Positions 291 through 51,478 of a DNA stretch of 64,000 nucleotides are shown here, one piece after another. The stretch spans positions 8,357 through 72,356 of the IMG/VR virus record IMGVR_UViG_3300025120_009955. The stretch is one strand, 5' to 3'. The position numbers were made by a program, and so were the translations under genes. The stretch's first letter is position 1. Every line of letters begins with the position of its first letter. The notes under the pieces are model-generated. The model did not search any database and was not told where the DNA came from. It worked only from the letters and a program-made list of their open reading frames with translations. The stretch comes from a virus.

Positions 291-2636
291 GTGAGTAGTA
301 TTCAAGTTAAAAAACGTAGTGGTGATGTTGTTCCGTTAGACCTAGTCAAATGGCAAACTCAAGTAGCGAAGGTCTGTCGAGGTACTGCAGACGTTAGTCA
401 ATCAATGATAGAGATTAAGGCACAGCCTCATTTTTATGATGGTATCAGCACCAGAGAGATTGATGAGATTACTTTACGTGCTGTAGTTGATCTAATTGAT
501 ATAGAACACGAGCCAGAAGTAGGACACACCAATTACCAATTTGTAGCAGGCAAGCAACGCCTAAGTATGTTACGTAAAGATATATATGGTACCTATCTCC
601 CACCTAAACTGTATGAAATTGTTAAAAAAAATGTAGACACTGGCCTGTATACAGAAGAATTACTAAAATGGTATTCAGAAGATGAATGGAACGATATGGA
701 AAATATCATCGACCATAGTAAAGACGAAGATTATAGTTATGCGGCCATTGAACAGTTAATTGCAAAATATCTTGTTAAGAATAGATCAACAAAAGAAATT
801 TATGAGACTCCACAGATTCGTTATATAATTGCCGCGGCAACAGTATTCCATAAAGAAGAAACAAATAAAAGATTAAAGTTTATTAAAGAGTACTATACCT
901 GCGCCAGCGATGGATTGTTTACCCTAGCAACTCCCGTACTGGCTGGCCTAGGTACCCCTACAAAACAGTTTAGCTCGTGTGTATTAATTAAAGCAGACGA
1001 CAACTTAGACTCAATATTTGCATCAGGTGAAATGATGGCAAAATATGCGGCTAAACGTGCAGGCATTGGCCTAGAGGTAGGAAGATTAAGACCATTAGGT
1101 AGTCCCATTAGAGGTGGTGAAGTTATGCACACTGGTATGATTCCATTTTTAAAGAAATGGTTTGGTGACCTACGATCGTGTAGCCAAGGTGGTATACGTA
1201 ATGCTTCAGCAACAGTATTTTATCCCATATGGCATCATCAATTTGATGATCTAATAGTATTAAAAAACAACCAAGGAACAGAAGAAACTCGTGTACGTCA
1301 TATGGACTATGGTGTAGTATTGAATGCTTTCTTTTTTAGACGATTCAAGAACAAAGAAAATATTACATTCTTTGATCCAAACGAAGTTCCTGATTTGTAT
1401 GAAGCATTTTATACAGACACAAAACTATTTGAAGACTTATATATACAGTACGAAAAACAAAGAAACTTACGTAAAAAAGTAATATCAGCTGAAGAAGTAT
1501 TTAAAGCAGGCATACTTAAAGAACGTACAGATACTGGTAGAATATATCTTGCATTTACTGACAACGTAATGAAACAAGGACCATTTGATCCTGAACATCA
1601 TCCAATATATCAAAGTAATCTATGTTGTGAAATACTGTTACCAACTAAACCGTTTAAGAGATTAGATGATCCTAATGGACGTATTGCTTTATGTACTCTA
1701 GGAAGTATTAATTGGGGTAGTTTTAGAAATCCAGAAGATATGCGTAGAGCCTGTCGTATATTACAACGTTCATTATGCAACATATTAGATTATCAAGATT
1801 TCTTAAGTGTACAAAGTAAATTGTCAAATGATGAGATATCACCACTAGGTGTTGGTGTTACTAATTTAGCTTACTGGCACGCTAAACGAGGAATGAAGTA
1901 CGGAGAGAAAGAAGCATTACAAGAAGTTAAAACTTGGATGGAGCATCAAGCATTTTATCTAACTCAAGGTACTGTTGAACTAGCTAAAGAACGTGGTGCC
2001 TGTAAACATAGTGCATACACACGTTATGGACGAGGAGAATTTCCCTGGGAAAATCGTGCTAAAGGTGTTAATAAACTAACAGACTTTACTCCAACAAATG
2101 ATTTAAACTGGGAAACTCTACGTCATGATATGAGGATGTATGGTGTGCGTAATGCTACACTAATGGCTATTGCTCCAGTTGAATCAAGTTCTGTTGTAGT
2201 TAGTAGCACCAATGGTATTGAGATGCCAATGAGCTTGATATCAGTTAAAGAATCCAAAGCAGGATCGTTAATACAGGTAGTTCCGGAGTATAATAAATTA
2301 AAGAATAAATATGAACTGATGTGGGACCAAAAGGATTGTGAAGCATACCTTAAAACGGCCGCGGTACTAGCCGCTTATGTGGATCAAAGCATAAGTACAA
2401 ATACCTTTTATAATCCAGCACATTTTCCGGAACGTAAGGTACCAACAACTATAATTGCTAAGAATCTAATGCAGGCACACGCCTGGGGCATCAAAACCTT
2501 CTATTACAGTCTTATTAACAAGGCTGGTAGTAAAAACATAGATGACGTATTAGATGAAAGTAATCTTTTACCCTTGTCTGATACTGTAAGACAAGATTTT
2601 ATTGACGATGATGACTGTGAGGCGTGTAAACTATAA
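291..2636 (+). CDS. nrdA: ribonucleoside-diphosphate reductase class Ia alpha subunit
   Basis: N-terminal ATP cone (VKKRSG), SSCVL, QSNLCCEI catalytic motif, KTFYY, C-terminal CEAC; GTG start after GAGG. Confidence 0.97.
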   Translation: MSSIQVKKRSGDVVPLDLVKWQTQVAKVCRGTADVSQSMIEIKAQPHFYDGISTREIDEITLRAVVDLIDIEHEPEVGHTNYQFVAGKQRLSMLRKDIYGTYLPPKLYEIVKKNVDTGLYTEELLKWYSEDEWNDMENIIDHSKDEDYSYAAIEQLIAKYLVKNRSTKEIYETPQIRYIIAAATVFHKEETNKRLKFIKEYYTCASDGLFTLATPVLAGLGTPTKQFSSCVLIKADDNLDSIFASGEMMAKYAAKRAGIGLEVGRLRPLGSPIRGGEVMHTGMIPFLKKWFGDLRSCSQGGIRNASATVFYPIWHHQFDDLIVLKNNQGTEETRVRHMDYGVVLNAFFFRRFKNKENITFFDPNEVPDLYEAFYTDTKLFEDLYIQYEKQRNLRKKVISAEEVFKAGILKERTDTGRIYLAFTDNVMKQGPFDPEHHPIYQSNLCCEILLPTKPFKRLDDPNGRIALCTLGSINWGSFRNPEDMRRACRILQRSLCNILDYQDFLSVQSKLSNDEISPLGVGVTNLAYWHAKRGMKYGEKEALQEVKTWMEHQAFYLTQGTVELAKERGACKHSAYTRYGRGEFPWENRAKGVNKLTDFTPTNDLNWETLRHDMRMYGVRNATLMAIAPVESSSVVVSSTNGIEMPMSLISVKESKAGSLIQVVPEYNKLKNKYELMWDQKDCEAYLKTAAVLAAYVDQSISTNTFYNPAHFPERKVPTTIIAKNLMQAHAWGIKTFYYSLINKAGSKNIDDVLDESNLLPLSDTVRQDFIDDDDCEACKL

Positions 2637-3739
2637 TGAGTAAAGAACAATATAACTTAAAAACAAAAACTGATTATCTAAATAGAAAGATGTTCCTTGA
2701 CCCCCAAGGTCCTGTAACAATACAGAGATTCGAAGAAGTAAAATACAACAAGATAGTTAGTCTAGAACAGACTGCTAGAGGATTCTTTTGGATTCCTGAA
2801 GAAATTAGCTTAACAAAAGATTCAAATGATTTTAAAACTGCTAGTGATACAGTTAAACATATATTCACATCAAATCTGTTAAGGCAAACAGCGTTAGATA
2901 GTCTGCAAGGGCGTGGCCCAGCACAGGTATTTACACCAGTAGTTGGACTGCCTGAACTAGAAGCGTTGATGTTTAATTGGTCATTCTTTGAAACTAACAT
3001 TCACTCTAGAAGTTACAGTCATATTATACGTAACATCTACAATGTGCCTAAAGAAGTTTTTAATACAATTCACGACACCAATGAAATTATTGATATGGCT
3101 TCTAATATTGGTGAATACTACGACAAATTGCACGTAATTAATTGTAAGAAAGAATTAGGACACAAGATTGCCGAGCAGGACCATATCAATGCAATATGGC
3201 TAGCACTAAATGCAAGCTATGGTCTAGAAGCATTCCGATTTATGGTATCATTTGCTACAAGTCTTGCAATGGTAGAAAATAGAATCTTTATGGGTAACGG
3301 AAATATTATTAGCCTAATCCTACAAGATGAATTACTGCATAAAGAATGGACTGCTTGGATGATTAAACAGGTAGTTAAAGAGGACAAGAGATTTGCAAAA
3401 GCTAAAGAACAATGTGAAGCTGAAGTATATCAAATGTATATAGATGTTATAGCTGAAGAAAAAGCCTGGGCAGACTATCTATTCAAATTGGGCCCGGTTA
3501 TTGGTCTTAATGCAAACATACTTAAAGAGTTTGTTGACTACACAGCAGTTAGTGCCCTTAAAGATATTGGTATTAAGTATCAAGATCCAGCACCTAAGAC
3601 TACTCCGATACCGTGGTTTAATAAACACAGTGATACTAGTAAAAAACAAACAGCACTACAAGAAAACGAATCAACTAATTATGTCATTGGTGTAATGGAC
3701 GGAAGTCTTGAATACGATGAATTACCGGAGTTAGATTAA
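2636..3739 (+). CDS. nrdB: ribonucleoside-diphosphate reductase class Ia beta subunit
   Basis: FFWIPEEI, ETNIHSRSY, DELLH di-iron motifs; coupled to nrdA. Confidence 0.97.
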   Translation: MSKEQYNLKTKTDYLNRKMFLDPQGPVTIQRFEEVKYNKIVSLEQTARGFFWIPEEISLTKDSNDFKTASDTVKHIFTSNLLRQTALDSLQGRGPAQVFTPVVGLPELEALMFNWSFFETNIHSRSYSHIIRNIYNVPKEVFNTIHDTNEIIDMASNIGEYYDKLHVINCKKELGHKIAEQDHINAIWLALNASYGLEAFRFMVSFATSLAMVENRIFMGNGNIISLILQDELLHKEWTAWMIKQVVKEDKRFAKAKEQCEAEVYQMYIDVIAEEKAWADYLFKLGPVIGLNANILKEFVDYTAVSALKDIGIKYQDPAPKTTPIPWFNKHSDTSKKQTALQENESTNYVIGVMDGSLEYDELPELD

Positions 3740-6445: not shown

Positions 6446-6647
6446 AGATGACATTGAGTTTGAAAGTAACGATGAAGGTTTTAGTGCTGAAGATTATATA
6501 TTTGTTTGTACTCCAAACGGAGAGTTGAAAGAAGTTGTATTTCCAGTAACAGATTCAATGAGATATCCAGCTAAACTGTTAGAAGTGTTTGAACATTTTG
6601 GAATTGACGATCCTGACAGTTTGCTTGTACCAAAAGTACTACACTAG
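6408..6647 (+). CDS. hypothetical protein
   Basis: 79-aa ORF with AAGGAG RBS. Confidence 0.6.
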   Translation: MAKKENTSKDLGKDDIEFESNDEGFSAEDYIFVCTPNGELKEVVFPVTDSMRYPAKLLEVFEHFGIDDPDSLLVPKVLH

Positions 6648-7156
6648 CCAAGCATACGACGTAGCTGACGTAAAGTATCAGCTACATCATCTTTAAACAA
6701 TATAGCTTTCCCCCCAACACTTTCCCATTCTTCGATATTACTGATTCTATCATCAATTAATACATCATTTTCTTCTTTATGATGAGATTTCTTATCTACA
6801 GTATAAGGTCCTAAGAATAAAGGAATACCTGGAAAACGCTTTTTAATCCAATGTGTTTTATCCCAGAATACCCATTGCATATTATTTTCACGTGGCACTG
6901 CTGAGAGGAATGCAATATTCATTTCCTTATCGTTAGCTATTTTTTTTAATTCATTTACTAGTTTAACAGCATCAGGCATTAGTTCTAGTTTACTGTAAAT
7001 TCTTTCATCAACACAAATTTTAAACCAATCGTCAGTACTGTATCTATGCCCTCTTTTCGGCCGATGCCCAACAACTGCTTCTGCGTATCCTTCGAAGTCT
7101 GCTACTACACCATCCATATCTAAATATATTGTTGACATTGTTTTTTTATCTGACAT
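6644..7156 (-). CDS. 5'(3')-deoxyribonucleotidase, HAD superfamily
   Basis: YLDMDGVVADF motif I, LIDDR motif IV. Confidence 0.85.
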   Translation of the reverse strand: MSDKKTMSTIYLDMDGVVADFEGYAEAVVGHRPKRGHRYSTDDWFKICVDERIYSKLELMPDAVKLVNELKKIANDKEMNIAFLSAVPRENNMQWVFWDKTHWIKKRFPGIPLFLGPYTVDKKSHHKEENDVLIDDRISNIEEWESVGGKAILFKDDVADTLRQLRRMLG

Positions 7157-7164
7157 TATTTTTC

Positions 7165-8316
7165 CTAAATTTCAATTTGTTGGTTACCGCGATTGGGGAA
7201 ATAATCCTTTTGTTCACCTACTCTATTAAGGTCTGATGTGATACAATGTAACCCACCATCCCAAAAGTATCTATGACGGAAATTTATAATATGTGGAGTA
7301 ATACCATGGCGATCAAACGCTTCGAACACTTCCTTGTTATAGTTATTAACTACTACATTTTGTTCGTTTATAACCAGAACATTAACATCAAACACAGTCT
7401 CTTCTACATATCCAACCCAATGGCCCATCCATTCATTTACGTAATCTGTAAATTCATCATTAGTCTCTTCACCAGGTACCCACCATTTACCTTCGTTTTT
7501 ATCTTTAAGACCAAGAAATTCCGGGATCTTACCCCAACTCTGTTCTGGAAGATACACAACTTCCCATCCTGGAAATGTTTCACTATATGTTTGTACATCT
7601 CGTAGACTTAGAATTAAACCTGGTTTAACCGGACAAAAAATACCGTCACTGTGTCCACCTGAGTTTACAATATGATTGCGATGGTCAGGGAATAGTGCTT
7701 GTCTTTCACTCAGTATTGGTTTGAAGTCATCAGTTTTAACGTTAGTACCATGGTATAAATCTTTACCAATTCGTGTTGTGAAAGCGCCATTAACAGTATT
7801 TTTCTCTTTAACCAACTCGCATTTATCTCCAAGACTATCTAGCATACCTTTCCAACCAAAATAGTGAGACCCAGGATCACTTATACCAAATTGATTAAAA
7901 GCTTCATCGAGAATCCATTGTGGAATATCTTTTGGGGATTCTGGCCGATCTCCCCAGCTTTCGCCTTTAATGGCATCCCATTTAATCATAAGGTCATGAA
8001 AATTAAAAAAGAACCTATTACCAATCATAGCAGTATGATCTCTAGGTACCATTGGCGGAGGAACAATTTTACCATTATAATCTAGATAATTTTTATAATC
8101 AGTGCTGACATACGGTCTGTGAATTTCTATATCAAATGATTTTAATAATGCGATTACCTTCTGATAGTCTTCTTCTGTTTCTTCAGCAATACGTTCCATA
8201 ACTGTACGTGCTTTACTATTTTTAATCCACGAATAGAACTCTGGTGCATATGATTTCCCTACAGCACAGACTTTGAGTGGATCCCAATGTTGATTTACAC
8301 TATATTTTGTGATCAT
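7165..8316 (-). CDS. amidinotransferase family protein
   Basis: WDPLKVCAVG N-terminus, PRD, HSDG, C-terminal GGLHCIT catalytic Cys. Confidence 0.82.
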   Translation of the reverse strand: MITKYSVNQHWDPLKVCAVGKSYAPEFYSWIKNSKARTVMERIAEETEEDYQKVIALLKSFDIEIHRPYVSTDYKNYLDYNGKIVPPPMVPRDHTAMIGNRFFFNFHDLMIKWDAIKGESWGDRPESPKDIPQWILDEAFNQFGISDPGSHYFGWKGMLDSLGDKCELVKEKNTVNGAFTTRIGKDLYHGTNVKTDDFKPILSERQALFPDHRNHIVNSGGHSDGIFCPVKPGLILSLRDVQTYSETFPGWEVVYLPEQSWGKIPEFLGLKDKNEGKWWVPGEETNDEFTDYVNEWMGHWVGYVEETVFDVNVLVINEQNVVVNNYNKEVFEAFDRHGITPHIINFRHRYFWDGGLHCITSDLNRVGEQKDYFPNRGNQQIEI

Positions 8317-9434
8317 TTGAAATATTCCTTTTGTTTACCTTCTCTGTAAAGGTCTAATGTAATGCAGTGCAATCCGCCGTCCCAGAAATATCTATGGCGC
8401 CATGGCACATACACCGGTTCTACATTATGCTTTTTTAAAAATGTATTTACTTGTTCGTTGTTAGGGTTTGATATACAACAATGATGTTCATCTAACATTA
8501 GCACGTTAACGTCGAACACTGTTTCTTCAACATAACCAACCCAATCTTGTAACCAAGTTTCGACGAAGTGTGTAAACTCCGCATTATCTTCCTCACCAGC
8601 AAGCCACCACTTGCCAGCATTTTTCCTTTTTAGATCTAAAAAGCCTTTCACTTTGTTCCAACTTTGATCCTGCAAATAACATACGTCCCAGCCAGGAAAC
8701 ATTGTTTCATATGTCTGCACGTCATACAAACTTAATATTGCTCCAGGCTTTATAGGATGATAGTTTCCATCACTATGTCCTACCAATGGCACAAAGTTTA
8801 CATCAGTAAAAAGTCCAGTAGGATCATATGTTCTTTTAAAATCAAATGTTTTATCAGCAACAGTCTCCATACCAATGTCAATACGTTTCCCTAGAGGAAA
8901 ACTTCCTGCACTAGATAAGTCAAAAGTTTTTACATAATCCTTTTGTAGTTCTTGCCAAATGTCCGGCTGGAAAAAACTCTCGTTAGTAAAGTTGTTTTTA
9001 TAATCATCATAACTAGGATAATCTGCTCCAGCAATTAGATCATAATCAGTATCAGTGAGAAGCATTGCAACTCCTGTATCTAAATCTCCATATTTTTCTA
9101 AACATCTATGGATAGCATAATGATCAGTTTTATTTGACCAAGCACGATTCCCTAGAACTAGTTGAGAATCTCTAGGTTGTAGTGGGCCACGTGGGTATTC
9201 TTTAGGATTATCTATAAAGCGTTCAGTGTTATCCAATTCAGGTTGTATAACCTCTACACCAAAGTCTAGTAAAATATTTTTGAAACCTTCAAGGTCTTCA
9301 AGTGTTTCTTGACATATTCGTTTAAGCGGAGATTCTGCTCGAGTACCTAGCCCGTCAAAAAACTCTGGTGCATAGTTGTTTCCTAGCATACATACTTTGA
9401 GTGGATCCCATTTGTTCCATATGTTATACTTCAT
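8313..9434 (-). CDS. amidinotransferase family protein (paralogue of 7165..8316)
   Basis: WDPLKVCMLG, PRD, HSDG, GGLHCIT; C-terminal half highly similar to neighbour. Confidence 0.82.
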   Translation of the reverse strand: MKYNIWNKWDPLKVCMLGNNYAPEFFDGLGTRAESPLKRICQETLEDLEGFKNILLDFGVEVIQPELDNTERFIDNPKEYPRGPLQPRDSQLVLGNRAWSNKTDHYAIHRCLEKYGDLDTGVAMLLTDTDYDLIAGADYPSYDDYKNNFTNESFFQPDIWQELQKDYVKTFDLSSAGSFPLGKRIDIGMETVADKTFDFKRTYDPTGLFTDVNFVPLVGHSDGNYHPIKPGAILSLYDVQTYETMFPGWDVCYLQDQSWNKVKGFLDLKRKNAGKWWLAGEEDNAEFTHFVETWLQDWVGYVEETVFDVNVLMLDEHHCCISNPNNEQVNTFLKKHNVEPVYVPWRHRYFWDGGLHCITLDLYREGKQKEYFK

Positions 9435-9756
9435 CCGGGTAATCTCGGTATAAGGCGTGTTGTATCGTTGCAGTATCTACAAATCTATTAAAGCTCATAT
9501 GTTTTTCTTCTAGCTCACCTTTAAGAGGTGCAACCCTGGTGTGGGCTTTGTCTAACTGTTCCATATTTTTAAACTCCATCATGATATGCCATTCAGGTAT
9601 ATCCATACTCCTAAACCCTAGTTTCATACGCATCACACGAAACTTTTCCATTATGCCTTCGTCGACTAACTGCTGTAAGAAAGCATTCATATTATCAATC
9701 CATTGTTGATCATCTATGTTGCCTTTCTTGTCGGCCCAAATATTGTATACGTCCAC
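9424..9756 (-). CDS. hypothetical protein (possible dimeric alpha-beta barrel)
   Basis: 110-aa ORF overlapping both neighbours in the operon. Confidence 0.6.
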   Translation of the reverse strand: MDVYNIWADKKGNIDDQQWIDNMNAFLQQLVDEGIMEKFRVMRMKLGFRSMDIPEWHIMMEFKNMEQLDKAHTRVAPLKGELEEKHMSFNRFVDTATIQHALYRDYPDEV

Positions 9757-10205
9757 TATATTTCTCCTAATAATTCAAATCCATCAAACTTACTTTTATA
9801 CTTGTGTGCTTCACCTAGGTAATAATACTTGTATCCTTGGTCTTTATAATATGCACATTCATTTTCCAAACTTATACGTCCTAAACTTAGTTTAGGTTTT
9901 GCATAGTCCCAAGCAAATTGAACGGCATACACTACATCTTTATTATACTTGGTTACTACACTCCACGCAACCAATTTAGCATCATCATAATAACCAACGA
10001 CATCGTTATGATTCCACATAAACTCATTTTCCCACATTGGTTCAACACTAAGAAACTTTTTATAGTTACAATACTTCTTAAAGATTGATTGGAGTTCATC
10101 GATATCGGGATTAATAATTATCTTAAAGTCGGCTTTGGAAGTATAGTTAGTCTTAGATAGATCGATCCTAGCGTAATATAGATTCTGGTCGTTGGGTGAA
10201 AGCAT
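9756..10205 (-). CDS. aminoacyl-tRNA-protein transferase C-terminal (ATE/Bpt-like GNAT) domain protein
   Basis: YYDDAKLVAWS...VQFAWDYAKPKLSLGRISL...GYKYYYLG resembles the ATE_C signature (SLG...YxYLG). Confidence 0.65.
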   Translation of the reverse strand: MLSPNDQNLYYARIDLSKTNYTSKADFKIIINPDIDELQSIFKKYCNYKKFLSVEPMWENEFMWNHNDVVGYYDDAKLVAWSVVTKYNKDVVYAVQFAWDYAKPKLSLGRISLENECAYYKDQGYKYYYLGEAHKYKSKFDGFELLGEI

Positions 10206-10236
10206 ATGTTGAAGTTTTAAATAATAGTAATTAAAA

Positions 10237-10701
10237 CTATTTATAACGCCATGATACTACACTATCAACTTCCGATTTACTCCAATGATCATAATAACCT
10301 TTGTCTCTAATCTTGTCAGCGGCCGCATTCAATTCTTTCAGCCGTTGTACTATTAGTAATGCTGAATGTCCAAAGTTCATACTAACACCGTTTACTGTTT
10401 CGACTAATTCAGGATGATCTTCTAGTATCACAATGTCATCTGGCATATAAGAATCATTGAGATCTTGTGCTATTTGCCTAAATTCTTGTGCTGTAAATTC
10501 TTCAGTTGGATACCAAAACACATAAACTTCCTGTGTCCAGTTTATACTTTCAATATCTATTAGAGGATTAGTACCTTGCTGTATGTTAATTTGATTGTTT
10601 ATACGTGCGGCCCGTGCATACGGACAGGGTGCCCAATTACCTAATTTAGGATTAGGTTTTTCAACAAAATCTTTCATCCATTGTACAATTTTTTCTTGCA
10701 T
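10237..10701 (-). CDS. hypothetical protein (DUF1415-like CP[YF]A motif)
   Basis: W...FVE...PCPYA, DHP motifs. Confidence 0.55.
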   Translation of the reverse strand: MQEKIVQWMKDFVEKPNPKLGNWAPCPYARAARINNQINIQQGTNPLIDIESINWTQEVYVFWYPTEEFTAQEFRQIAQDLNDSYMPDDIVILEDHPELVETVNGVSMNFGHSALLIVQRLKELNAAADKIRDKGYYDHWSKSEVDSVVSWRYK

Positions 10702-10798
10702 CAGTTACCTAACAGCCATGGATTATTAATAATCCACCCTAGTGTATATAACGCTAGTACGACAAAAGTTACTACTGTGACATTTAATATATAACGTA

Positions 10799-11071
10799 TC
10801 ATGATTTTATCTCGGTAGGAGTATCGAATAATTCTAACTGTACAGGCAAGCCATAGTTCCTAACCATCTCCACTAGTGGATCGTATAGATTATCAGTTGA
10901 ATCCACAAGTTCAAAATCGTCATCATAGTAATCATACCAATCACCTATCTCACAGTCGTCTGAATCGCCACTTTGAACTCTTTTCCAAGCTTCTTTTTTT
11001 GTGTTAGCTTCGATGTAAGTAAATTCTTGATAAATTACTCTGCGTTCAAATGTGTATTGATTAATAGCCAT
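10799..11071 (-). CDS. hypothetical protein
   Basis: 90-aa acidic ORF directly behind a sigma70 promoter. Confidence 0.6.
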   Translation of the reverse strand: MAINQYTFERRVIYQEFTYIEANTKKEAWKRVQSGDSDDCEIGDWYDYYDDDFELVDSTDNLYDPLVEMVRNYGLPVQLELFDTPTEIKS

Positions 11072-11352: not shown

Positions 11353-11621
11353 TTTACAGCTGAATATTTCATTTTGAAAAAAAGGTATTTCTTTTCGTCG
11401 ACTATGTCATAATTTGGTAGTATACCGATATCTACATCATAGTATATTTTTATACCATAACGTTCGGTTAGCCAAAATTGAAAGTCGACTGGATCTCCAT
11501 CGGTTTCTTTATATTCTTCCTGGCACTTTGCTATACTAGCCCACCAAACATCGCCTAGTATAGTGCCAATCCTATCTAGTTTACTATCATACAAGTAATT
11601 GTTATTAGTTCGCTTTGTCAT
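11349..11621 (-). CDS. hypothetical protein
   Basis: 90-aa ORF ending IVDEKKYLFFKMKY. Confidence 0.6.
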   Translation of the reverse strand: MTKRTNNNYLYDSKLDRIGTILGDVWWASIAKCQEEYKETDGDPVDFQFWLTERYGIKIYYDVDIGILPNYDIVDEKKYLFFKMKYSAVK

Positions 11622-12048
11622 GAAATACTATTCCGTTACAGTGATCTAATTCGTGTTGATAACATATACTACCTAGGCCTTCAAACTGTCTAATAACTTC
11701 GTTCCCTTCATGATCCCAGAATCTAGCTACTACAGTTTTTGGTCTTTCTATCTTTAAAAATTCATCTGGAAAACTTAGGCATCCTTCTTGGTGTGTTATT
11801 AGTTCTTCACTGGATGCTAGTATTTCTGGATTAAAGCAATGATACTCGTCTGCATCCACTTGCATTACAAAAACTTTACGACTAATACCTATCTGAGGCC
11901 CAGCAAGTCCGATACCACCATGGGCAGTCATAAATTCGATCATCCTCTTTGCCAGCATTAGATTTTGGCCAGGATTTTTAAATGTCATCGGCTTTCCGGA
12001 TCTATATAAAACTTTTTTAGTTAATTTGAACTTGTTGGGTAATATCAT
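11605..12048 (-). CDS. def: peptide deformylase
   Basis: GIGLAGPQIG, EGCLSFP, QHELDH motifs. Confidence 0.95.
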   Translation of the reverse strand: MILPNKFKLTKKVLYRSGKPMTFKNPGQNLMLAKRMIEFMTAHGGIGLAGPQIGISRKVFVMQVDADEYHCFNPEILASSEELITHQEGCLSFPDEFLKIERPKTVVARFWDHEGNEVIRQFEGLGSICYQHELDHCNGIVFHDKAN

Positions 12049-35020: not shown

Positions 35021-35095
35021 GCACCCATCGTCTATCGGTTAGGACACCGGGTTTTCATCCCGGCAAGGGGAGTTCGATTCTCCCTGGGTGTACCA
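35021..35095 (+). tRNA. tRNA-Glu(TTC)
   Basis: cloverleaf; anticodon arm CCGGG-TT-TTC-AT-CCCGG; encoded CCA. Confidence 0.93.
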
Positions 35096-35100
35096 ATTTT

Positions 35101-35176
35101 GCCCTCTTAGCTCAGTTGGTAGAGCAACGCACTTGTAATGCGTAGGTCGTCAGTTCGAATCCGACAGAGGGCACCA
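35101..35176 (+). tRNA. tRNA-Thr(TGT)
   Basis: cloverleaf; ACGCA-CT-TGT-AA-TGCGT; encoded CCA. Confidence 0.95.
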
Positions 35177-35182
35177 AGATAA

Positions 35183-35272
35183 GGAAGTGTGGCTGAGTGG
35201 CTTAAAGCTCTGGTTTACTAAACCAGTGATCGGGAAACTGGTCCGTGGGTTCGAATCCTACCACTTCCGCCA
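35183..35272 (+). tRNA. tRNA-Ser(ACT)
   Basis: type II tRNA with long variable arm, G73 discriminator, CTGGT-TT-ACT-AA-ACCAG. Confidence 0.88.
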
Positions 35273-39275: not shown

Positions 39276-40484
39276 TTAAGACGTTAGTAGTTGGTGTATA
39301 GATTGCCAATCAACTTGGCTAGTATAGTTGATATCGTTGAATAAGGACTTAGTGTTAGTTATTAATTCTTTGGCGATAATATGCCTAAATTCACCATAAA
39401 AGTGGTTAAAATTATGTTCGATAATAGGTTTTAGATGCTCCTGAACGTCGGTTTTGTCACTAGGTGATAGATTAGCGTACCAGTGTAGCTGACTAACTAC
39501 TTTGTTGATTCTTTCTTGATTGTCTTGACAGATATCATAATCTTCGTCGATAACGCTATCAAATGTTTTAAATCCATAACTCTTAAGATAGGCAAGATTA
39601 TCTGGAGCGGCCAATAACATAAATGGTTGCTTATTAACAATAGGCTTAAATATCTTTTCTGTTAGGTGCATTTTAGAATGATAAAATACTGTTTCAGTAA
39701 CTACGTGCCAAAACGCATCCTGTTCACGTGGAATATCTGCACTAGCACTTCCTAGAACGCTAGCATTGTCTATTGTTAGTCTGGTAATATCTGTTAGATT
39801 ACGTTCTATACTATCTTTTTGTTGTTCACTTAATCTAGTCTTTGGATCACTTACTTCATCTCGCCAATCGCTAATAGCATCAGTTACACCAAAGCTAACA
39901 AAACCTTTATCTAATAGATCATATTCTTTCAAAAGACTAACAAGGTAAATCCTGTAGCTACGGTCTTGTTTAATTAATCTATTATAGGTAATAAAATCTT
40001 TATCGTATTCTCGTACTATTTCTTTATCGTGATTTAATGCTTGATATCCGCGAAACCAATCAAGTGCCGCAAATCCGTGATAAAAATAATATAAGTTTTC
40101 GAATCCATATTTTTCACTCATTTGTTTTTGAATTATACTTTTTTCGCTAGTAACTAATACAAAAGGCTTTTTAACAAATTTGGTATACCAAGCGATATAA
40201 TCATCGAGCTCGTTACCCTCGAGTATATTGTTATATAACTCAGGGTACTGTTTTCTATTTGTTGCTATATCAGTATAAGGAATATTAAAATAATCTAGGT
40301 ATGGTTCTGACAATTTGTCCAAAATAGGCTCTTGATCATAGAATAAAATCTTACGGGGTGAGACAGTTTTGTTAAATATTATATATGAACTTTCCGTAGG
40401 CACTCCCTTATCAAATGCGTGCAGTTCAAAGTCTTTAAAGACTGAGTTATGTAAAAACTCGTAGATGTGATCAATTTGGAGCAT
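39276..40484 (-). CDS. hypothetical protein, putative glycosyltransferase-like
   Basis: VVTET...LTEKIFKPI...GFKTFDSVIDEDYD; paralogue of 47089..48064. Confidence 0.55.
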   Translation of the reverse strand: MLQIDHIYEFLHNSVFKDFELHAFDKGVPTESSYIIFNKTVSPRKILFYDQEPILDKLSEPYLDYFNIPYTDIATNRKQYPELYNNILEGNELDDYIAWYTKFVKKPFVLVTSEKSIIQKQMSEKYGFENLYYFYHGFAALDWFRGYQALNHDKEIVREYDKDFITYNRLIKQDRSYRIYLVSLLKEYDLLDKGFVSFGVTDAISDWRDEVSDPKTRLSEQQKDSIERNLTDITRLTIDNASVLGSASADIPREQDAFWHVVTETVFYHSKMHLTEKIFKPIVNKQPFMLLAAPDNLAYLKSYGFKTFDSVIDEDYDICQDNQERINKVVSQLHWYANLSPSDKTDVQEHLKPIIEHNFNHFYGEFRHIIAKELITNTKSLFNDINYTSQVDWQSIHQLLTS

Positions 40485-40486
40485 AT

Positions 40487-41743
40487 ATGTCAACTAAAAC
40501 ATTGACTGATTTTATAAAAACAGTCGGATTTATCGGTATAGGCAAGTTAGGTATGCCTTGTGCAGAAGTAATGGCACAGGAATATAAAGTAACTGGCTAT
40601 GATATTTATAGCAAGACCAGTGAGAAGATTACTATATCTGACACACTAGAAGGTGCAGTTAAGGGTAACGATATTATATTTGTAGCTGTGCAAACACCAC
40701 ACGATCAAGAGTATGATGGTAGAACACCTAGCACGCATCTGGCAAATAAAGATTTTGACTACACAATAGTTAATAAAACACTAAAAGATATTAATCAATA
40801 CGTAACAAAAGATCAATTGGTAGTACTAATTTCCACAGTTCTACCTGGTACAACCCGTAGAGAACTAAAGCAAAACATTACTAATGCACGTTTCATTTAT
40901 AATCCATATCTAATTGCTATGGGATCAGTTGAATGGGATATGGTTAATCCAGAGATGGTTATCATAGGTACAGAAGATGGAAGTTTAACTGGTGATGCAA
41001 AATTACTGCAAGACTTTTATGCTCCCTTAATGGAAAACAACCCACGCTATTCTATAGGGACTTGGGACGAAGCAGAAGCTATAAAAATATTTTACAATAC
41101 ATTTATCTCAACAAAAATTGCATTAGTTAATATGATACAAGATGTTGCAATGAAGAACGGTAATATAAATGTTGATATTGTTACTGATGCACTAGCAAAC
41201 TCAACTACACGTATTATGAGTCCTAAGTATATGACAGCAGGTATGGGTGATGCTGGTCCTTGCCATCCTAGAGATAATATAGCACTACGTTATCTAGCAG
41301 AAAGTTTAGATCTAGGATATGATATGTTTGACACTATAATGCACGCAAGAGAAAAACAAGCAGAAAACATAGCTAGTTTTTTAACTGACCTACAGCAAAA
41401 AGAAAATCTTCCTATCATAATACACGGTAAATCATATAAGCCAGACGTAGATATGGTCGATGGTAGTTATAGTCTTTTGATAGGAAGTTACTTAGAACAA
41501 CAAGAAGCACATTTCTTTTACTCGGATCCACTGACTAACGACAGAGTTGCTGACGATTCTATAGGTATCATATTCTTAGCACACAACAGAGACATAACCT
41601 ATGGGTATACTGGAAAACATCCAGCACAACCTTTATACTTTATACCTGCTCCGGGAAGTATCGTGGTAGATCCTTGGCGTAAATTTAAAACTAAAAATCC
41701 TTTAATTTCAATTATACAATATGGTAACACTAGAAAAACTTAA
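40487..41743 (+). CDS. UDP-glucose/GDP-mannose dehydrogenase family protein
   Basis: GIGKLG Rossmann motif, AVQTP, STVLPGT, K.FYN, G.AGPCHPRD, YKPD. Confidence 0.88.
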   Translation: MSTKTLTDFIKTVGFIGIGKLGMPCAEVMAQEYKVTGYDIYSKTSEKITISDTLEGAVKGNDIIFVAVQTPHDQEYDGRTPSTHLANKDFDYTIVNKTLKDINQYVTKDQLVVLISTVLPGTTRRELKQNITNARFIYNPYLIAMGSVEWDMVNPEMVIIGTEDGSLTGDAKLLQDFYAPLMENNPRYSIGTWDEAEAIKIFYNTFISTKIALVNMIQDVAMKNGNINVDIVTDALANSTTRIMSPKYMTAGMGDAGPCHPRDNIALRYLAESLDLGYDMFDTIMHAREKQAENIASFLTDLQQKENLPIIIHGKSYKPDVDMVDGSYSLLIGSYLEQQEAHFFYSDPLTNDRVADDSIGIIFLAHNRDITYGYTGKHPAQPLYFIPAPGSIVVDPWRKFKTKNPLISIIQYGNTRKT

Positions 41744-42230
41744 TCCTTTTTGGGATAGAGAGTACACAGTCTTAGACTATTCCAACGAACCTTTCAATGA
41801 TTCTCACTCTGTTGATTGGTGGCTTAATGCTGGGTATCATGATAAGTTTACCGGTGATATGTGCGATATGAGAAAACCACAGCCAAGTTGGAATGATCAA
41901 ATTATTAGACATTTTAGTGAACTAGGATGGCAAGACATTGGCACTAGTTATTATAGAATGGCAACAGGAACAGTATTGCCTGAACACGTTGATACATATG
42001 AAAGATACATAAATCTATTTAATCTCAAAGATAAAGAAGATACTATCAGACGTGCTGTTGTATTCTTAGAAGATTGGAAACCAGGACACTATCTAGAAGT
42101 AGATGAAAAGCCTATACTAGAATGGAGTGCAGGTGATTATGTTGTATGGAGTAAGAAAACTCCGCATATGGCGGCCAACATAGGACTAGAGTATCGATAC
42201 ACTTTACAGATAACAGGACATCAATGCTAG
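41721..42230 (+). CDS. Fe(II)/2-oxoglutarate-type cupin dioxygenase
   Basis: PEHVD...PHMAAN...RYTLQITG (HxD...H triad). Confidence 0.7.
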   Translation: MVTLEKLNPFWDREYTVLDYSNEPFNDSHSVDWWLNAGYHDKFTGDMCDMRKPQPSWNDQIIRHFSELGWQDIGTSYYRMATGTVLPEHVDTYERYINLFNLKDKEDTIRRAVVFLEDWKPGHYLEVDEKPILEWSAGDYVVWSKKTPHMAANIGLEYRYTLQITGHQC

Positions 42231-43135
42231 TTAATAGCCATAATGAATGGGACAAGCTCAAGAGTGTTGTAGTTGGAACAGCTACAAATGCAAATTGGCC
42301 TATCAATGATCCAGTATTTTCACAAGAAAGTTCTAAAACTACTTGGACTGAAACACCAGTTCCGAGTGGAGCAGTTTCCCAAACGATAATAGATGAGACA
42401 AATGAAGACCTTGAATTACTAGCCAACGCTCTGTTTGGTCTCGGAGTAGAGGTGCATCGTCCTAGCGATATAGACTTTGTAGCTCAAGATGGTATGTATA
42501 ACTATTGTCCTAGGGATAGGTTAATTATAGCAGGTGACCGTGTTATAGATCCTGCTATGATGTATCCTTGTAGAGATCAAGAAATTTCTGCATACGATTT
42601 TATTACACAGGATAATCAAGTATTCAAGATGCCACGTGATCAAGGTATGACACTAGATGCCGCAAATGTATGTAGACTAGGTGACACTTGGTTAGTACTA
42701 GAAAGTGAAAGTGGTAATCGTAAAGCAATTGAATGGCTACGTGAACAAGTACCAGATATTAAAATTGAGATCTGTAACTTCTATTCAGGAGTGCATATAG
42801 ATTCAACTATTTGTCCTTTACGTGAAGGATTGGTAATGTTAAACGCATCCAGAGTTACTACAGGCAATTGTCCGAAAGTATTTGACGGTTGGGAAAAGTA
42901 TTGGATAAATGATTGCGTGCCAAAACCATTCCATGAATACCCATACGCATCTAAGTGGGTAGGTATGAATTGTCTAAGTGTTGATCCAAATACTGTTATT
43001 ATGGATTCAGCACAAACTACTATTATTAAAGATCTAGAGGCACTAGATATTACAGTGATACCATTAAACTTACGCCATAGCCGTACACTAGGCGGGTCAT
43101 TTCATTGTGTGACATTAGATTTAATAAGACAATAA
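42224..43135 (+). CDS. amidinotransferase (glycine/inosamine-phosphate amidinotransferase-like)
   Basis: VNSHNEWDKLKSVVVG, CPRD, DAAN, HIDST, GGSFHCVTLD. Confidence 0.9.
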   Translation: MLVNSHNEWDKLKSVVVGTATNANWPINDPVFSQESSKTTWTETPVPSGAVSQTIIDETNEDLELLANALFGLGVEVHRPSDIDFVAQDGMYNYCPRDRLIIAGDRVIDPAMMYPCRDQEISAYDFITQDNQVFKMPRDQGMTLDAANVCRLGDTWLVLESESGNRKAIEWLREQVPDIKIEICNFYSGVHIDSTICPLREGLVMLNASRVTTGNCPKVFDGWEKYWINDCVPKPFHEYPYASKWVGMNCLSVDPNTVIMDSAQTTIIKDLEALDITVIPLNLRHSRTLGGSFHCVTLDLIRQ

Positions 43136-43172
43136 GGTAAATAGTTACATAACACAAATACAAGGTTCCTTA

Positions 43173-43904
43173 ATGTCAGAGAAGTTCTCGTCGTATACTG
43201 AAATATCAGTAAACGCATTACAGTTTAATCCCAAAGGGCAAGAAGTTTTAGATCGAAAAAAAGAAATTTTGCGATCTATTTCCGAGCGTCACGGTAGCTC
43301 ACCTGCAAGTATTCTATTCTATGGATTCAGTCCATTACTACTAATTTGTGATGCTGAGACTATAGCAGTAACAGAAATTAGCGATAAGATAAAAAAATAC
43401 CTAGATGACAAAGGCATTAAATACACATATATTGAAGAAGACAAATTAAAAGATCATGATAAGAAGTTTGATTGGGTAGTAGCAGTAGATGAATACTTTA
43501 CATTTGCTAACAGTGAAGATCATCAACAGGGTAAGATTGCACGATTGTGTGCTTTAGCTAAAAAGCTAGTAGTAACAACACTTAAAGATTATAAGAATCA
43601 AGACTTCCGTGATAAAGAATTTAGTTCTCCGTTAGCTGTAAGGAATAACAAAGACAGTAAGGTATTTTTAGAACATCACAATTATGATTACCAAGATAGA
43701 AATAGTTGGAAGACAGTGGTATATGAGTTACTAGGCAATGAAGCAAATACAGCAGGACCATACAATCGACGTAGTATGTTTTTTAAACAGATGGCTAAGT
43801 TTAGTATAGATGCTGGTGCAAAAGAGTTTTACGTACATAAAAATTTAATGTACAAAAGTCTCATAAAAAAGAATTATGAGCACGTAATATCAATTAGTTT
43901 TTAA
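43173..43904 (+). CDS. hypothetical protein (possible degenerate methyltransferase fold)
   Basis: 243-aa ORF; KKFDWVVA motif. Confidence 0.55.
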   Translation: MSEKFSSYTEISVNALQFNPKGQEVLDRKKEILRSISERHGSSPASILFYGFSPLLLICDAETIAVTEISDKIKKYLDDKGIKYTYIEEDKLKDHDKKFDWVVAVDEYFTFANSEDHQQGKIARLCALAKKLVVTTLKDYKNQDFRDKEFSSPLAVRNNKDSKVFLEHHNYDYQDRNSWKTVVYELLGNEANTAGPYNRRSMFFKQMAKFSIDAGAKEFYVHKNLMYKSLIKKNYEHVISISF

Positions 43905-43925
43905 TATTAGTTTTTCGAGAAAAAT

Positions 43926-45188
43926 ATGGATATCAATGAATCGCTACAACCGGTAGTTGCGGGGATAATTCAAAATCTTAAGGGTGACCTTGAATCAGAA
44001 CTCCGTGAACAAATAAGTCAAGAAGTTGTTAAAGCCATTGCTGGTACTGAGGTACAAGCTATAGCTGAACGTATTATCACAGGTCGTCTCAATGAGCGTA
44101 TTGCAGAATTTAATATTGAAACTAAAACAAAAGATAAATTAGATCAAGCACTAGCAAAGATTATATCTAACCTAACAGCAAACCTAACAAAGACAGCAAA
44201 CGAACAAGTTAAAACAGAAATTGATGCTAGAGTAGCAACAATGGATCTTCAATCAGTTCTAGGTGCAATGGTAGAAAGCAAGATAGGTAATCTGGTACAA
44301 ACTGGAGCATTTGGAAAAGAATCTATTAACCACACAGCTATAGATTTTAAAGGATTTAATTTTACAGGTGATCAAGTTAAAGGTGGTATCATTCAAGAAT
44401 TTGGTAGTACTGGTATCGAGGATCGCTCTACCAAAATACAAATGACTGTAATGGATACTGCTGTAGCATTTGAACAAGCAATGTGGGCTCCAAAAGCTAC
44501 GATTAAAGGTGACCTAATAGTTGATGGTACACTTAAACTTACTGGAGATATAGATCCTAGTGGCCCAGCTGTTAACACTCTAGCTGAACTAACAGTAGAA
44601 AAAATTGCAGAAGATTCAACGCTACTTAGCTTGCATAGTGAAACTATATTAAAAGATATAGGCAATCGAGGACTTGACCTAGATCGCATAACACAACAAG
44701 GTAGAGAAATAGTAGCAGGTAATCAGCTAGGATATCATATTACTGATAGTAACCTGCAGAGAGTTGGTACATTACGTGATCTACAAACCACCGGTGAATC
44801 AGTATTAAGTGATACCTTATATACTACAGGAAAACGTGTTGGAATTAATACTATAGAACCTAGTGCTACGTTATCGATTTGGGATGAAGAAATTGAAATA
44901 TCAATTGGTAAAAAATCTAAAGACAGTGGATTTATTGGAATGGATAGATCACAATCTCTAGTAATAGGTAGTGCTGGAAATAGTAATTTAATTGTGCAAC
45001 CAGATGGAAGTGTAGAAATAGAAAATTTACGTGTAGGTAATACTCCAATGAGTTCAGAGGCAGTATGTCCTAACTACAGTGCTATCACTGGAACAATAGT
45101 TTGGAATGAAGCACCAGGCCTGGGAGGCCCAGCTGGGTGGATAAACCTAGGTGGTACAGCTTGGGGAAAATTTGGGATTATCGAATAA
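43926..45188 (+). CDS. hypothetical, probable virion structural protein
   Basis: helical N-terminus, beta-rich C-terminus with RVGINT and GTIVWN..P..GGPAGW. Confidence 0.6.
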   Translation: MDINESLQPVVAGIIQNLKGDLESELREQISQEVVKAIAGTEVQAIAERIITGRLNERIAEFNIETKTKDKLDQALAKIISNLTANLTKTANEQVKTEIDARVATMDLQSVLGAMVESKIGNLVQTGAFGKESINHTAIDFKGFNFTGDQVKGGIIQEFGSTGIEDRSTKIQMTVMDTAVAFEQAMWAPKATIKGDLIVDGTLKLTGDIDPSGPAVNTLAELTVEKIAEDSTLLSLHSETILKDIGNRGLDLDRITQQGREIVAGNQLGYHITDSNLQRVGTLRDLQTTGESVLSDTLYTTGKRVGINTIEPSATLSIWDEEIEISIGKKSKDSGFIGMDRSQSLVIGSAGNSNLIVQPDGSVEIENLRVGNTPMSSEAVCPNYSAITGTIVWNEAPGLGGPAGWINLGGTAWGKFGIIE

Positions 45189-50905: not shown

Positions 50906-51085
50906 ATGAGATATATAAATTGCTTTACAAAAAGCCCTACAACTAAACAGATAGTGAAACATTCACCTGGACTAGTCGCAGGAATTGCACTAATATTAAT
51001 AATGAACCCATACCTAGCAATTGCAGGTATAGCATTAATTGTCGGTGAATTTGTAGGAATTGCAGACGAATTAGAATTGTTGTAA
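50906..51085 (+). CDS. hypothetical small membrane protein
   Basis: GGAG RBS; hydrophobic; ends just before tmRNA. Confidence 0.5.
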   Translation: MRYINCFTKSPTTKQIVKHSPGLVAGIALILIMNPYLAIAGIALIVGEFVGIADELELL

Positions 51086-51086
51086 T

Positions 51087-51418
51087 CCCTTCGAAGTGAA
51101 GGCGTTGCGGACAGGGGTTCGATTCCCCTCATCTCCACCAAAGTGTTTTTGAAACAGAGTATTTTAGGGGGATGACCAGGTTTCGACGTGGCGAGATAGC
51201 AGAGACGGCAACACGGTAGGCGATGACCGTAAATCAAGCAAAACTTATAGATGCAGAAAAAACATCTAAATTCGAAACTGTAAAAGTAAGTATGGGCAAA
51301 GGCTTCCGCTTTGGCTCTGCTGACCGTGCAGTTGCGTTAGCGTAAAAACTAACATCGACGGGGTAGTTATACCTTGTTACCAAAAATAGCAGAAGCCCAC
51401 TTCGGTGGGTTTCTTTTT
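51087..51418 (+). ncRNA. ssrA: circularly permuted (two-piece) tmRNA
   Basis: T-arm plus CATCTCC-ACCA (ends 51140) precedes GGGGATG (51168) giving G3.U70; tag ORF 51253-51345; terminator 51391-51418; 5' boundary approximate. Confidence 0.88.
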
Positions 51419-51478
51419 GGTTACAAAAAGGTTGTATAAATATTTTGACTAGTGTATAATATATTACAAGTATACTAG

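Follow-up and report, generated by a model that had tools for sequence, protein, structure and literature searches.

A widespread phage gene trio and its divergent amidinotransferase-fold neighbors: a possible pathway for arginine or guanidine tailoring

We describe a compact gene block in a 64-kb stretch of viral DNA (hereafter, the window), which forms part of the 72,356-b IMG/VR virus record IMGVR_UViG_3300025120_009955. CheckV estimates the completeness of this record at ~20%, and it is therefore taken to be a fragment of a marine giant phage. The block consists of three small genes, encoding a DUF6875-like protein, a miniature aminoacyl-tRNA transferase-like protein (mini-ATE), and a DUF6614 protein, together with two genes for divergent amidinotransferase-fold proteins (ATs). 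We find that the constant unit is the trio and that an AT is a frequent but optional neighbor. The module, whose enzymes have known folds, is specific to phages and widespread among them, and its chemistry is unexplained. Our leading interpretation, which we hold tentatively and at a little under an even chance, is that the block encodes an arginine/guanidine tailoring pathway resembling the AglC-AglA pair of bacterial argolaphos biosynthesis. The genes are arranged in the window as follows (lengths in amino acids, aa).

10237..10701, minus strand: DUF6875/P422-like, AglA-like protein, 154 aa; first gene of the conserved trio; probable Cys-ligated heme (or metal) enzyme
9756..10205, minus strand: mini-ATE, an ATE_C-only aminoacyl-tRNA transferase-like GNAT protein, 149 aa; PF04377
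9424..9756, minus strand: DUF6614 protein, 110 aa; PF20319; third gene of the trio
8313..9434, minus strand: AT2, amidinotransferase-fold paralog belonging to a separate clade, 373 aa
7165..8316, minus strand: AT1, amidinotransferase-fold enzyme from the clade that accompanies the trio, 383 aa
6644..7156, minus strand: NT5C/HAD 5'(3')-deoxyribonucleotidase, 170 aa; adjoins the block, outside the conserved module

Followed downstream from the DUF6875-like gene to the nucleotidase gene, the successive intergenic gaps are +31, -1, -11, -4, and +8 nt. An earlier note on this DNA had described five tightly packed minus-strand genes followed by a HAD nucleotidase, and as a description of the layout this stands: the open reading frames (ORFs) are separated by +31 to -11 nt, and the nucleotidase gene begins 8 nt further on. 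The DUF6614 gene starts with GTG, with AGGAG in front, and the GC content of the block is that of the remaining window. The nucleotidase assignment rests on PF06941 (E value 8.2e-9; 36 bits against a cut-off of 24.8) and phrog_2643 (1.9e-33).

DNA nearly identical to window positions 6600-10800 was recovered from marine and brine metagenomes, and it tiles this interval in two independent runs (30/30 bins in X7 and 29/30 in X15). The locus is thus not an assembly artifact. Eighteen runs from 15 studies, of marine, seawater, or brine origin, contain no less than half of the words sampled from it, and six of these runs are possibly the source of the record. Metatranscriptome contigs match pieces of 151 to 354 nt from the HAD/AT1 region, AT1, and the DUF6875-like gene with one to four differences, but such libraries can contain DNA, and these matches are no proof of transcription. 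A scan of the window for promoters and terminators gave matches at chance level only.

The trio recurs across a large number of uncultured phages; two of its proteins, the mini-ATE and the DUF6875-like protein, are represented by 770 and 904 clusters, found on contigs as long as ~340 kb. In a survey centered on the mini-ATE gene, at least 544 stretches of viral contigs matched. The best 80 of these were taken, and counts were made from the 48 that had at least 3 kb on both sides. A DUF6875-like gene was present in 46/48 of these loci and a DUF6614 gene in 42/48, while an AT gene was found in 25/48 (within 2.5 kb in 24/48). DUF6875-like, DUF6614, and AT genes occurred together in 19 of the 48, and four loci had two or more ATs. 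The earlier note had named a failure of the genes to recur together as one observation that would speak against its proposal; the neighborhood survey instead finds them co-conserved in many uncultured phages. Its picture of a single five-gene operon with a HAD gene has to be replaced by a constant core of DUF6875-like, ATE_C, and DUF6614 genes, to which an AT is joined in about half of the loci.

A second survey, centered on the ATs, covered 80 viral loci, with neighbors counted within eight ORFs of the AT. It recovered the mini-ATE in 13/80 loci, a DUF6875-like gene in 13/80, and DUF6614 in 17/80, and the AT loci with module context cover at least four different flanking contexts. Relatives of the HAD gene, of the peptide deformylase (PDF) gene that lies in the same minus-strand block of the window (11605-12048), and of the small ORFs of the block were found in none of the 80. 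The nucleotidase is consequently a neighbor in the window and not a co-conserved member.

Natural gene fusions provide evidence of a different kind. In protein P0287 (572 aa), a DUF6875-like domain (residues 6-164) is joined without a linker to an AT1-type protein (residues 167-572), whose sequence is 45% identical to AT1 (E value 7e-128). This fusion places the DUF6875-like protein and AT1 in one process. Five records with the trio and no adjoining AT were also inspected: three carry ATs elsewhere, and the two that do not are fragments, 19 to 23% complete. One phage record, G001 (331,654 b, 95% complete), has four ATs spread over 160 kb besides its trio, which suggests a family of paralogs with several acceptors.

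The distribution of the module is that of a phage element. Among cultured phages, the GenBank phage collection yielded no near-identical DNA, no ATE_C relative, and no DUF6614 relative. Distant AT relatives occurred in only four of its records, and 23 cyanomyovirus records have distant DUF6875-like genes and lack the rest of the module. A scan of contigs from cellular genomes returned seven loci, including three carriers of part or all of the module. One of these is a 6-kb contig of a metagenome-assembled genome (L087) with DUF6875-like, ATE_C, and AT genes. In another (L089), the trio is flanked on one side by T4 portal and baseplate genes, which identify the contig as mis-binned phage DNA, and on the other by a homing endonuclease gene. 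In the Bdellovibrionia chromosome (L088, L091), a lone DUF6875-like gene is surrounded by an Mrp/NUBPL ATPase gene and housekeeping genes, a context that is uninformative on function. All cellular matches in the scan are either mis-binned phage contigs or this lone Bdellovibrionia gene. Literature searches found no phage ATE-like gene and no link of DUF6614 or DUF6875 to a module of this kind.

In one viral locus (L083, 134-11413), ATE_C, DUF6875-like, AT, and DUF6614 genes are embedded among five radical-SAM genes. The arrangement recalls the clusters of radical-SAM and "glycine amidinotransferase" genes that PMC2853527 describes in Campylobacter phages CP220 and CPt10.

The 149-aa protein is best understood as the ATE_C domain of an ATE/Bpt-type aminoacyl-tRNA transferase standing alone. 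It matches PF04377 (ATE_C) at E 2e-9 (38.5 bits; cut-off 25) over profile positions 25-120 of 122, with a weak second match to PF13480, and Pfam finds no ATE_N domain in it. Nearly all of the 770 proteins of the family are 140 to 150 aa long, and the small size is therefore typical of the family and no sign of truncation. The ATE_C profile matches Kluyveromyces lactis (K. lactis) Ate1 (7wg1) at 4e-4, whereas the NCBIfam arginyltransferase models score far under their cut-offs (26.8 against 170 bits and 24.2 against 252). An AlphaFold 2 (AF2) model has a mean predicted local distance difference test score (pLDDT) of 89.9, and Foldseek places ATE1 first, then MprF-type aminoacyl-phosphatidylglycerol synthases together with Sba18/Sbb17, with acetyltransferases after these. 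Sba18 and Sbb17 are aminoacyl-tRNA-dependent peptide synthases. The earlier note had called this protein an ATE/Bpt-type transferase and had proposed structure prediction with Foldseek as a check; the Pfam score, the Ate1 profile match, and the structural ranking all agree with that assignment.

Key positions of K. lactis Ate1 were mapped onto the phage family by a hidden Markov model alignment and an alignment of 14 sequences. Trp260 corresponds to W99 and Tyr303 to Y136 (both 14/14), Ser273 to S112 and Glu277 to E116 (both conserved in at least 90%), and Lys304 to K137 (12/14). Ser255 is replaced by Ala in the phage protein, as it is in Bpt, and Tyr289 corresponds to Tyr128 in the window protein but to Leu or Phe in most relatives. 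According to PMC9351520, mutagenesis supports the importance of these Ate1 residues: Lys304 and Tyr303 are catalytic, Trp260 contacts the tRNA, and Ser273 and Glu277 form the Arg pocket, in which the negative charge of Glu277 is required for binding of the Arg moiety. The phage protein thus shares with ATE1 and Bpt (PF04376 + PF04377) the ATE_C GNAT domain, the key Ate1 positions, and the top fold matches, and differs from them in lacking ATE_N with its Zn finger and acidic N-terminus pocket, in its low NCBIfam scores, and in the Ser255-to-Ala replacement. Taken together, these features suggest that the mini-ATE is a functional aminoacyl-tRNA transferase, perhaps one for basic amino acids, whose acceptor is not the classical one.

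The first protein of the trio belongs to a large family (904 cluster representatives) whose annotation is slight. Its sole Pfam match is DUF6875 (E 9.2e-5; 23 bits, under the cut-off of 24.5), across an N-terminal stretch of the model that holds the Cys-Pro. Among 97 relatives, 37 match DUF6875 weakly (best E 3e-5) and six match DUF1415 weakly, and ESM Atlas neighbors are clusters of the same family or tagged DUF1415/DUF6875 only. A PDB sequence search with the family profile gave nothing usable. Conservation is sharper: Cys26-Pro27 is invariant (97/97), and D95-H96-P97 is conserved in at least 90%. In the AF2 model (pLDDT 97.2), helices flank four strands, and the invariant Cys lies close to the N-terminus. 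In an exhaustive structural alignment the best match was AglA (9ub3_A; 135 residues, root-mean-square deviation 3.7) at Z 7.1, ahead of the next at 4.1, but a Z of 7.1 is within the ambiguous range and may reflect a shared arrangement only.

Two lines of recent work give these matches a chemical meaning. A bioRxiv preprint (10.64898/2025.12.11.692455) renames DUF6875 cytochrome P422, a group of thiolate-heme tryptophan hydroxylases that carry the heme on the Cys of an RxGxVCP motif. DUF6875 is the phage protein's only Pfam family, and the matched stretch includes the Cys-Pro of this motif; on the other hand, the phage motif is G-x-W-x-P-C-P in place of R-x-G-x-V-C-P, the score is under the gathering cut-off, and no tryptophan-pathway neighbors were seen around the phage gene. 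AglA of Streptomyces monomycini is presented in PMC12866846 as the prototype YqcI/YcgG thiolate-heme guanidine N-hydroxylase, with a four-strand sandwich fold and heme bound by the N-terminal Cys44. The 154-aa protein is probably a Cys-ligated heme (or metal) enzyme and a probable heme-type N-hydroxylase. In the Bdellovibrionia chromosome contig L091 (5893-7324), the lone DUF6875-like gene and the gene of an Mrp/NUBPL-type iron-sulfur carrier ATPase overlap in convergent orientation, and it is conceivable from this that DUF6875-like proteins deal with iron in one form or another.

AT1 and AT2 are paralogs (39% identity, E 2e-80). AT1 has no Pfam match at E <= 0.1, AT2 has one spurious Pfam match only, and neither has an NCBIfam match. 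Taken singly, AT1 matches AGAT in the PDB (1.7e-8), AT2 matches HsvA (5.3e-5) and SxtG (5e-4), and such single sequences reach just the C-termini of AGAT, HsvA, SxtG, and StrB1. A profile built from 30 homologs matches the same proteins over their full length (StrB1 3.8e-32, HsvA 1.3e-30, AGAT 2.2e-30, SxtG 1.1e-27). At E <= 0.01 it matched seven PDB sequences, every one an amidinotransferase, with no deiminase or hydrolase among them. The earlier note's assignment of both large proteins to the amidinotransferase fold is thereby confirmed, and the PRD, HSD, and GGLHC motifs that it had pointed out are present in both. Across the 30 sequences, the His of the HC column is conserved in 30/30 and the Cys in 29/30 (C358 in AT1; AT2 keeps HC too), H222, D224, P91, and R92 in 30/30, and D93 in 29/30. 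The PRD Asp, the H-x-D pair, and the HC Cys align with AGAT D170, H303/D305, and C407, with the numbering checked through alignment offsets; these we take to be catalytic residues of AGAT.

The phage proteins depart from this pattern at one position. AGAT D254 (StrB1 D179) is presumably the Asp of a Cys-His-Asp triad, backing the catalytic His. The corresponding column contains Asn in 17, Ser in 8, Asp in 3, Cys in 1, and Pro in 1 of the 30 sequences (Asn176 in AT1, Ser in AT2), in a region where the alignment is less certain than at the other catalytic sites. The Asp is retained solely in one other sequence and in proteins of the type of AT3, a third AT of the window that is described below. 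AT1/AT2-type proteins also have an insert of ~45 residues (KNxGKWWxPGEE...WVGYVEETVF) and new invariant residues (R347, H348, E306, and D353). In sum, they resemble AGAT, StrB1, HsvA, and SxtG in full-length profile similarity (E 1e-27 to 4e-32), Cys nucleophile, His-x-Asp, and PRD Asp, and are unlike them in the absence of a Pfam match, the Asn or Ser at the position of the His-partner Asp, and the insert. We regard AT1 and AT2 as a divergent sister group of the amidinotransferases, judged from sequence to be probably amidinotransferase-like in action and not proven members.

The AT family is large: a search at E <= 0.001 gave 6259 proteins, and the contigs that encode them reach 339 kb. We built a quick maximum-likelihood tree (IQ-TREE) of 69 ATs, from which proteins under 290 aa and exact duplicates had been dropped. 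Gene context follows AT clade: the module label changes six times on the tree, against a mean of 13.3 for shuffled labels, and none of 500 shuffles was as low. AT1 falls in a grade whose members all have module context. AT2 is in another clade, as sister to a protein of locus L012 (SH-aLRT, an approximate likelihood-ratio branch support, of 96 in this quick tree). Other clades have other surroundings, such as a clade of 28 rows beside radical-SAM and SbcCD-like genes and one of 14 rows inside clusters with FolE, QueE, YhhQ, and phosphoribosyltransferase (PRTase) genes. In locus L003 (4352-5551), an AT copy has PRN for PRD and HG for HC, and from these replacements it is probably an inactive paralog.

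The 110-aa protein is assigned to DUF6614 by its match to PF20319 (83.3 bits, where the cut-off is 25; E 1.7e-23), and a profile search of PDB sequences for this family returned no match. Sixteen aligned sequences have 29 invariant columns, many of them polar (R43, K45, R49, E55, E61, H86, N90, Q99, H100, R104, and D105), and the protein has no Cys. The earlier note had left two proteins of the block unnamed: for this one a family can now be given, and the other, the 154-aa protein, resembles thiolate-heme N-hydroxylases. The AglA-like gene would add an oxidation step that the note had not foreseen, and points to arginine/guanidine as the common theme.

This theme links the enzymes of the block. 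Amidinotransferases use Arg as the amidino donor, ATE enzymes move Arg from Arg-tRNA, and AglA types hydroxylate guanidine nitrogens; the Arg-pocket Glu of the ATE family is retained in the mini-ATE (E116). In the pathway that we propose, an AT would move the amidino group of L-arginine onto its Cys thiol and then to an amine, giving a guanidino compound. The AglA/P422-like protein might N-hydroxylate or otherwise oxidize this guanidine or an arginyl side chain, and the mini-ATE would take an amino acid (probably a basic one such as Arg) from its tRNA and attach it to this molecule at an amine or N-OH. An accessory step could fall to DUF6614. Because the mini-ATE lacks the ATE_N domain that recognizes protein N-termini, the acceptor is most likely a small metabolite; a protein, glycan, or nucleic acid is less favored. 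The gene order, families, folds, residues, co-conservation, and fusion reported here are observed, and from them we infer the chemical steps, their order, and the product.

Aminoacyl-tRNA-dependent transferases and guanidine N-hydroxylases are familiar from bacterial antibiotic pathways and from the N-degron pathways of eukaryotes and bacteria, and neither is known to have been described in phages. The closest precedent is argolaphos. According to PMC12866846, AglC, with ArgRS and tRNA, makes AMPn-Arg, and AglA then hydroxylates N-epsilon; the argolaphos cluster is also listed with a PF08892 protein beside PF13480/GNAT "aminoacyl tRNA ligases" (PMC8976061). AglC with AglA or AlpD combines a tRNA-dependent GNAT-fold transferase with a small Cys-ligated sandwich protein, both acting on arginine, and the phage pair is possibly alike. 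There are several differences. The phage protein has no detectable sequence similarity to PF08892 and is 154 aa long, whereas the chain of AglA has 243 residues; as an ATE_C protein of 149 aa, the phage transferase is also shorter than AlpF/AlpO (342 to 356 aa); and the phage module lacks phosphonate genes, has ATs and DUF6614 in addition, and belongs to a phage and not to an actinomycete cluster. DcsA/DcsB, which convert N-hydroxy-arginine to hydroxyurea, likewise join guanidine N-hydroxylation to arginine chemistry (DcsA is named in PMC8976061 and PMC12866846). In the valanimycin pathway, VlmH and VlmA reportedly pair an N-hydroxylase with seryl-tRNA-dependent O-acylation. The phage module has no arginase or kinase partners, and any homology to them is fold-level at most.

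Several observations weigh against a common arginine/guanidine pathway. Marine phages pack unrelated auxiliary genes into islands, and adjacency alone is weak evidence. In 23 of the 48 mini-ATE-centered loci, no AT lies within 7 kb, and the trio therefore does not require an adjoining AT. AT1 and AT2 lack both the AGAT/StrB1 triad Asp and a Pfam match, so their chemistry may differ from amidino transfer. Two of the 14 ATE_C homologs have Met at the position of the catalytic Lys304. The heme assignment is subject to the sub-threshold DUF6875 score and ambiguous AglA alignment given above; further, a Foldseek search of the PDB with the 154-aa model was empty at E <= 0.001, and PF08892 (YqcI/YcgG) was unmatched across the whole record even at E 10, although PF08892 found matches in four control genomes. 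The near-invariant Cys and Asp-His set could also form a metal site or a catalytic triad. Finally, in a second fusion protein, P0382, a radical-SAM domain (PF04055, 48.3 bits) is followed by a C-terminal DUF6875-like domain. This combination fits an O2-dependent heme oxygenase poorly, and the DUF6875-like domain may accordingly be a binding, carrier, or metal module.

The alternative that survives best, although we consider it unlikely, is protein modification. Like ATE1 and Bpt, the mini-ATE would use aminoacyl-tRNA to attach Arg or another residue to proteins of the phage or its host, either at the N-terminus or on side chains, and the other enzymes would edit protein-bound Arg or Lys by hydroxylation or by Arg-to-Orn or Lys-to-homoarginine exchange, with the purpose of steering N-degron proteolysis or decorating virion proteins. 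Aminoacylation of protein N-termini is the sole established function of ATE/Bpt enzymes (PMC9351520), but the features that serve it (an acidic N-terminus pocket of Arg80, Tyr25, and Tyr87, and the Zn finger) belong to the ATE_N domain that the mini-ATE lacks. PDF, another enzyme of N-termini, is encoded in the same minus-strand block, yet it is not co-conserved (0/80 loci). Structural genes do occur nearby in some phages: the trio of L089 lies between portal/baseplate genes and a homing endonuclease gene, and in cultured cyanomyoviruses a distant DUF6875-like gene adjoins prolyl-hydroxylase-like and baseplate wedge genes. A distant AT homolog (27% identity) of cyanophage S-SCSM2R was detected in purified virions, as reported in PMC12801897. 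S-SCSM2R and the other cyanophage relatives are, however, very distant and have no mini-ATE. Characterized amidinotransferases, moreover, use free arginine and small amines.

A bolder version of the tailoring pathway can also be imagined, and we rate it as quite improbable. Marine giant and T4-like phages would run a tRNA-dependent pathway in the style of natural-product biosynthesis, in which a mini arginyl-tRNA transferase, a minimal thiolate-heme guanidine N-hydroxylase, and the amidinotransferases produce an N-hydroxyguanidine arginyl conjugate while infection proceeds. This could serve as a reactive or antimetabolite warhead (for instance, a donor of nitric oxide or nitroxyl [NO/HNO], or a hydroxyurea-like compound) or as a new guanidino hypermodification of virion DNA, glycan, or protein.

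It is also doubtful, to a slightly greater degree, that the genes share no pathway at all, the block being a set of separate auxiliary genes in a variable island, with the ATs in polyamine, sugar, or guanidino metabolism and the trio unrelated to arginine. The numbers lend this some weight, since the AT family (6259) is far larger than the ATE_C (770) or DUF6875-like families, ATs also stand beside sugar-nucleotide, radical-SAM, and deazaguanine genes, and the trio can be found without an AT, as in L085. The in-frame, linker-less fusion of DUF6875-like and AT1-type proteins argues the other way, as do the specific AT grade that accompanies the trio across at least four flanking contexts, the AT within 2.5 kb of the mini-ATE in half of the loci, and the overlapping start and stop codons in the window.

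We give still less credence to hypermodification of nucleotides or DNA, in which phage DNA or its precursors would be fitted with a base or sugar bearing a guanidino or aminoacyl group, as a shield against host nucleases. The block does lie among genes of nucleotide metabolism (NT5C 8 nt downstream, and a class Ia ribonucleotide reductase [RNR] at 291-3739), and elsewhere the module follows a dCMP deaminase gene or precedes an endonuclease V-like gene. These neighbors vary by lineage, however, and NT5C is not co-conserved. The 14-row AT clade, often with DUF6614, occurs in 7-deazaguanine-type clusters (FolE, QueE-like, YhhQ/Vut_1, PRTase, and IMPDH/GMP-reductase-like genes), but that context belongs to an AT clade that is accompanied by neither the mini-ATE nor the DUF6875-like gene. 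A coliphage DUF6614 protein is reported to be anti-Druantia in one preprint (10.1101/2024.04.14.589459). The genes observed next to the module include no DNA transglycosylase, no base hydroxymethylase, and no DNA glycosyltransferase, which speaks against hypermodification.

Two simpler readings of the ATs were considered and set aside. The earlier note had allowed that they might be plain arginine deiminases or hydrolases; this is disfavored, given that the AT profile matches amidinotransferases alone in the PDB, although the missing triad Asp leaves it some likelihood. Synthesis of creatine or guanidinoacetate, of interest as an ocean-virus paper discusses GAMT and GATM (PMC11360552), is rejected because no methyltransferase accompanies the module.

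Should the product of the module be a new compound or adduct derived from arginine, the chemistry known to be encoded by phages would grow by a new class. Biocatalysis would gain two enzyme types in very small format (149 and 154 aa), and DUF6614 would acquire a function.

The window contains a second cluster with an AT, at 39276-45188, which is probably a guanidino-sugar module.

Within 39276-45188, minus strand: divergent 405-aa unknown
40487-41743: UDP-glucose/GDP-mannose dehydrogenase, then a 169-aa unknown
42224-43135: AT3, a third, shorter amidinotransferase (303 aa), in which the canonical triad Asp is present and the 45-aa insert absent
After AT3, to the cluster end at 45188: 243-aa and 420-aa unknowns

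PDB sequence searches with the 405-aa and 420-aa proteins gave nothing usable. In locus L006, a counterpart of the 40487-45188 part of this cluster directly precedes ATE_C, DUF6614, and AT genes.

On seven other contigs (L007, L008, L014, L021, L025, L040, and L043), ATs of a separate clade, often duplicated in tandem, are followed by DUF6614. The clusters around them encode GTP cyclohydrolase I, a QueE-like radical-SAM protein, YhhQ/Vut_1, a PRTase, an IMPDH/GMP-reductase-like protein, and a cupin. These 7-deazaguanine-like clusters hint at a guanidino derivative of a deazapurine.

The window also encodes GroEL, Hsp20, a head protease, and a DNA ligase, besides the class Ia RNR already mentioned. 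Its three tRNA genes are for Glu, Thr, and Ser, with no tRNA-Arg among them. This tRNA cluster and a "tmRNA*" call by ARAGORN are located at 35021-35272 and 51048-51436, and the "tmRNA*" overlaps two minus-strand ORFs. Between 23916 and 30427 lie genes for a curlin-repeat protein, a PQQ-dehydrogenase-like protein (624 aa), and a 946-aa molybdopterin oxidoreductase with 2Fe-2S/4Fe-4S domains that is formate-dehydrogenase/NuoG-like. The GC content of this stretch climbs to 0.41, compared with ~0.36 elsewhere in the window, and it represents either unusual phage cargo or a chimeric join.

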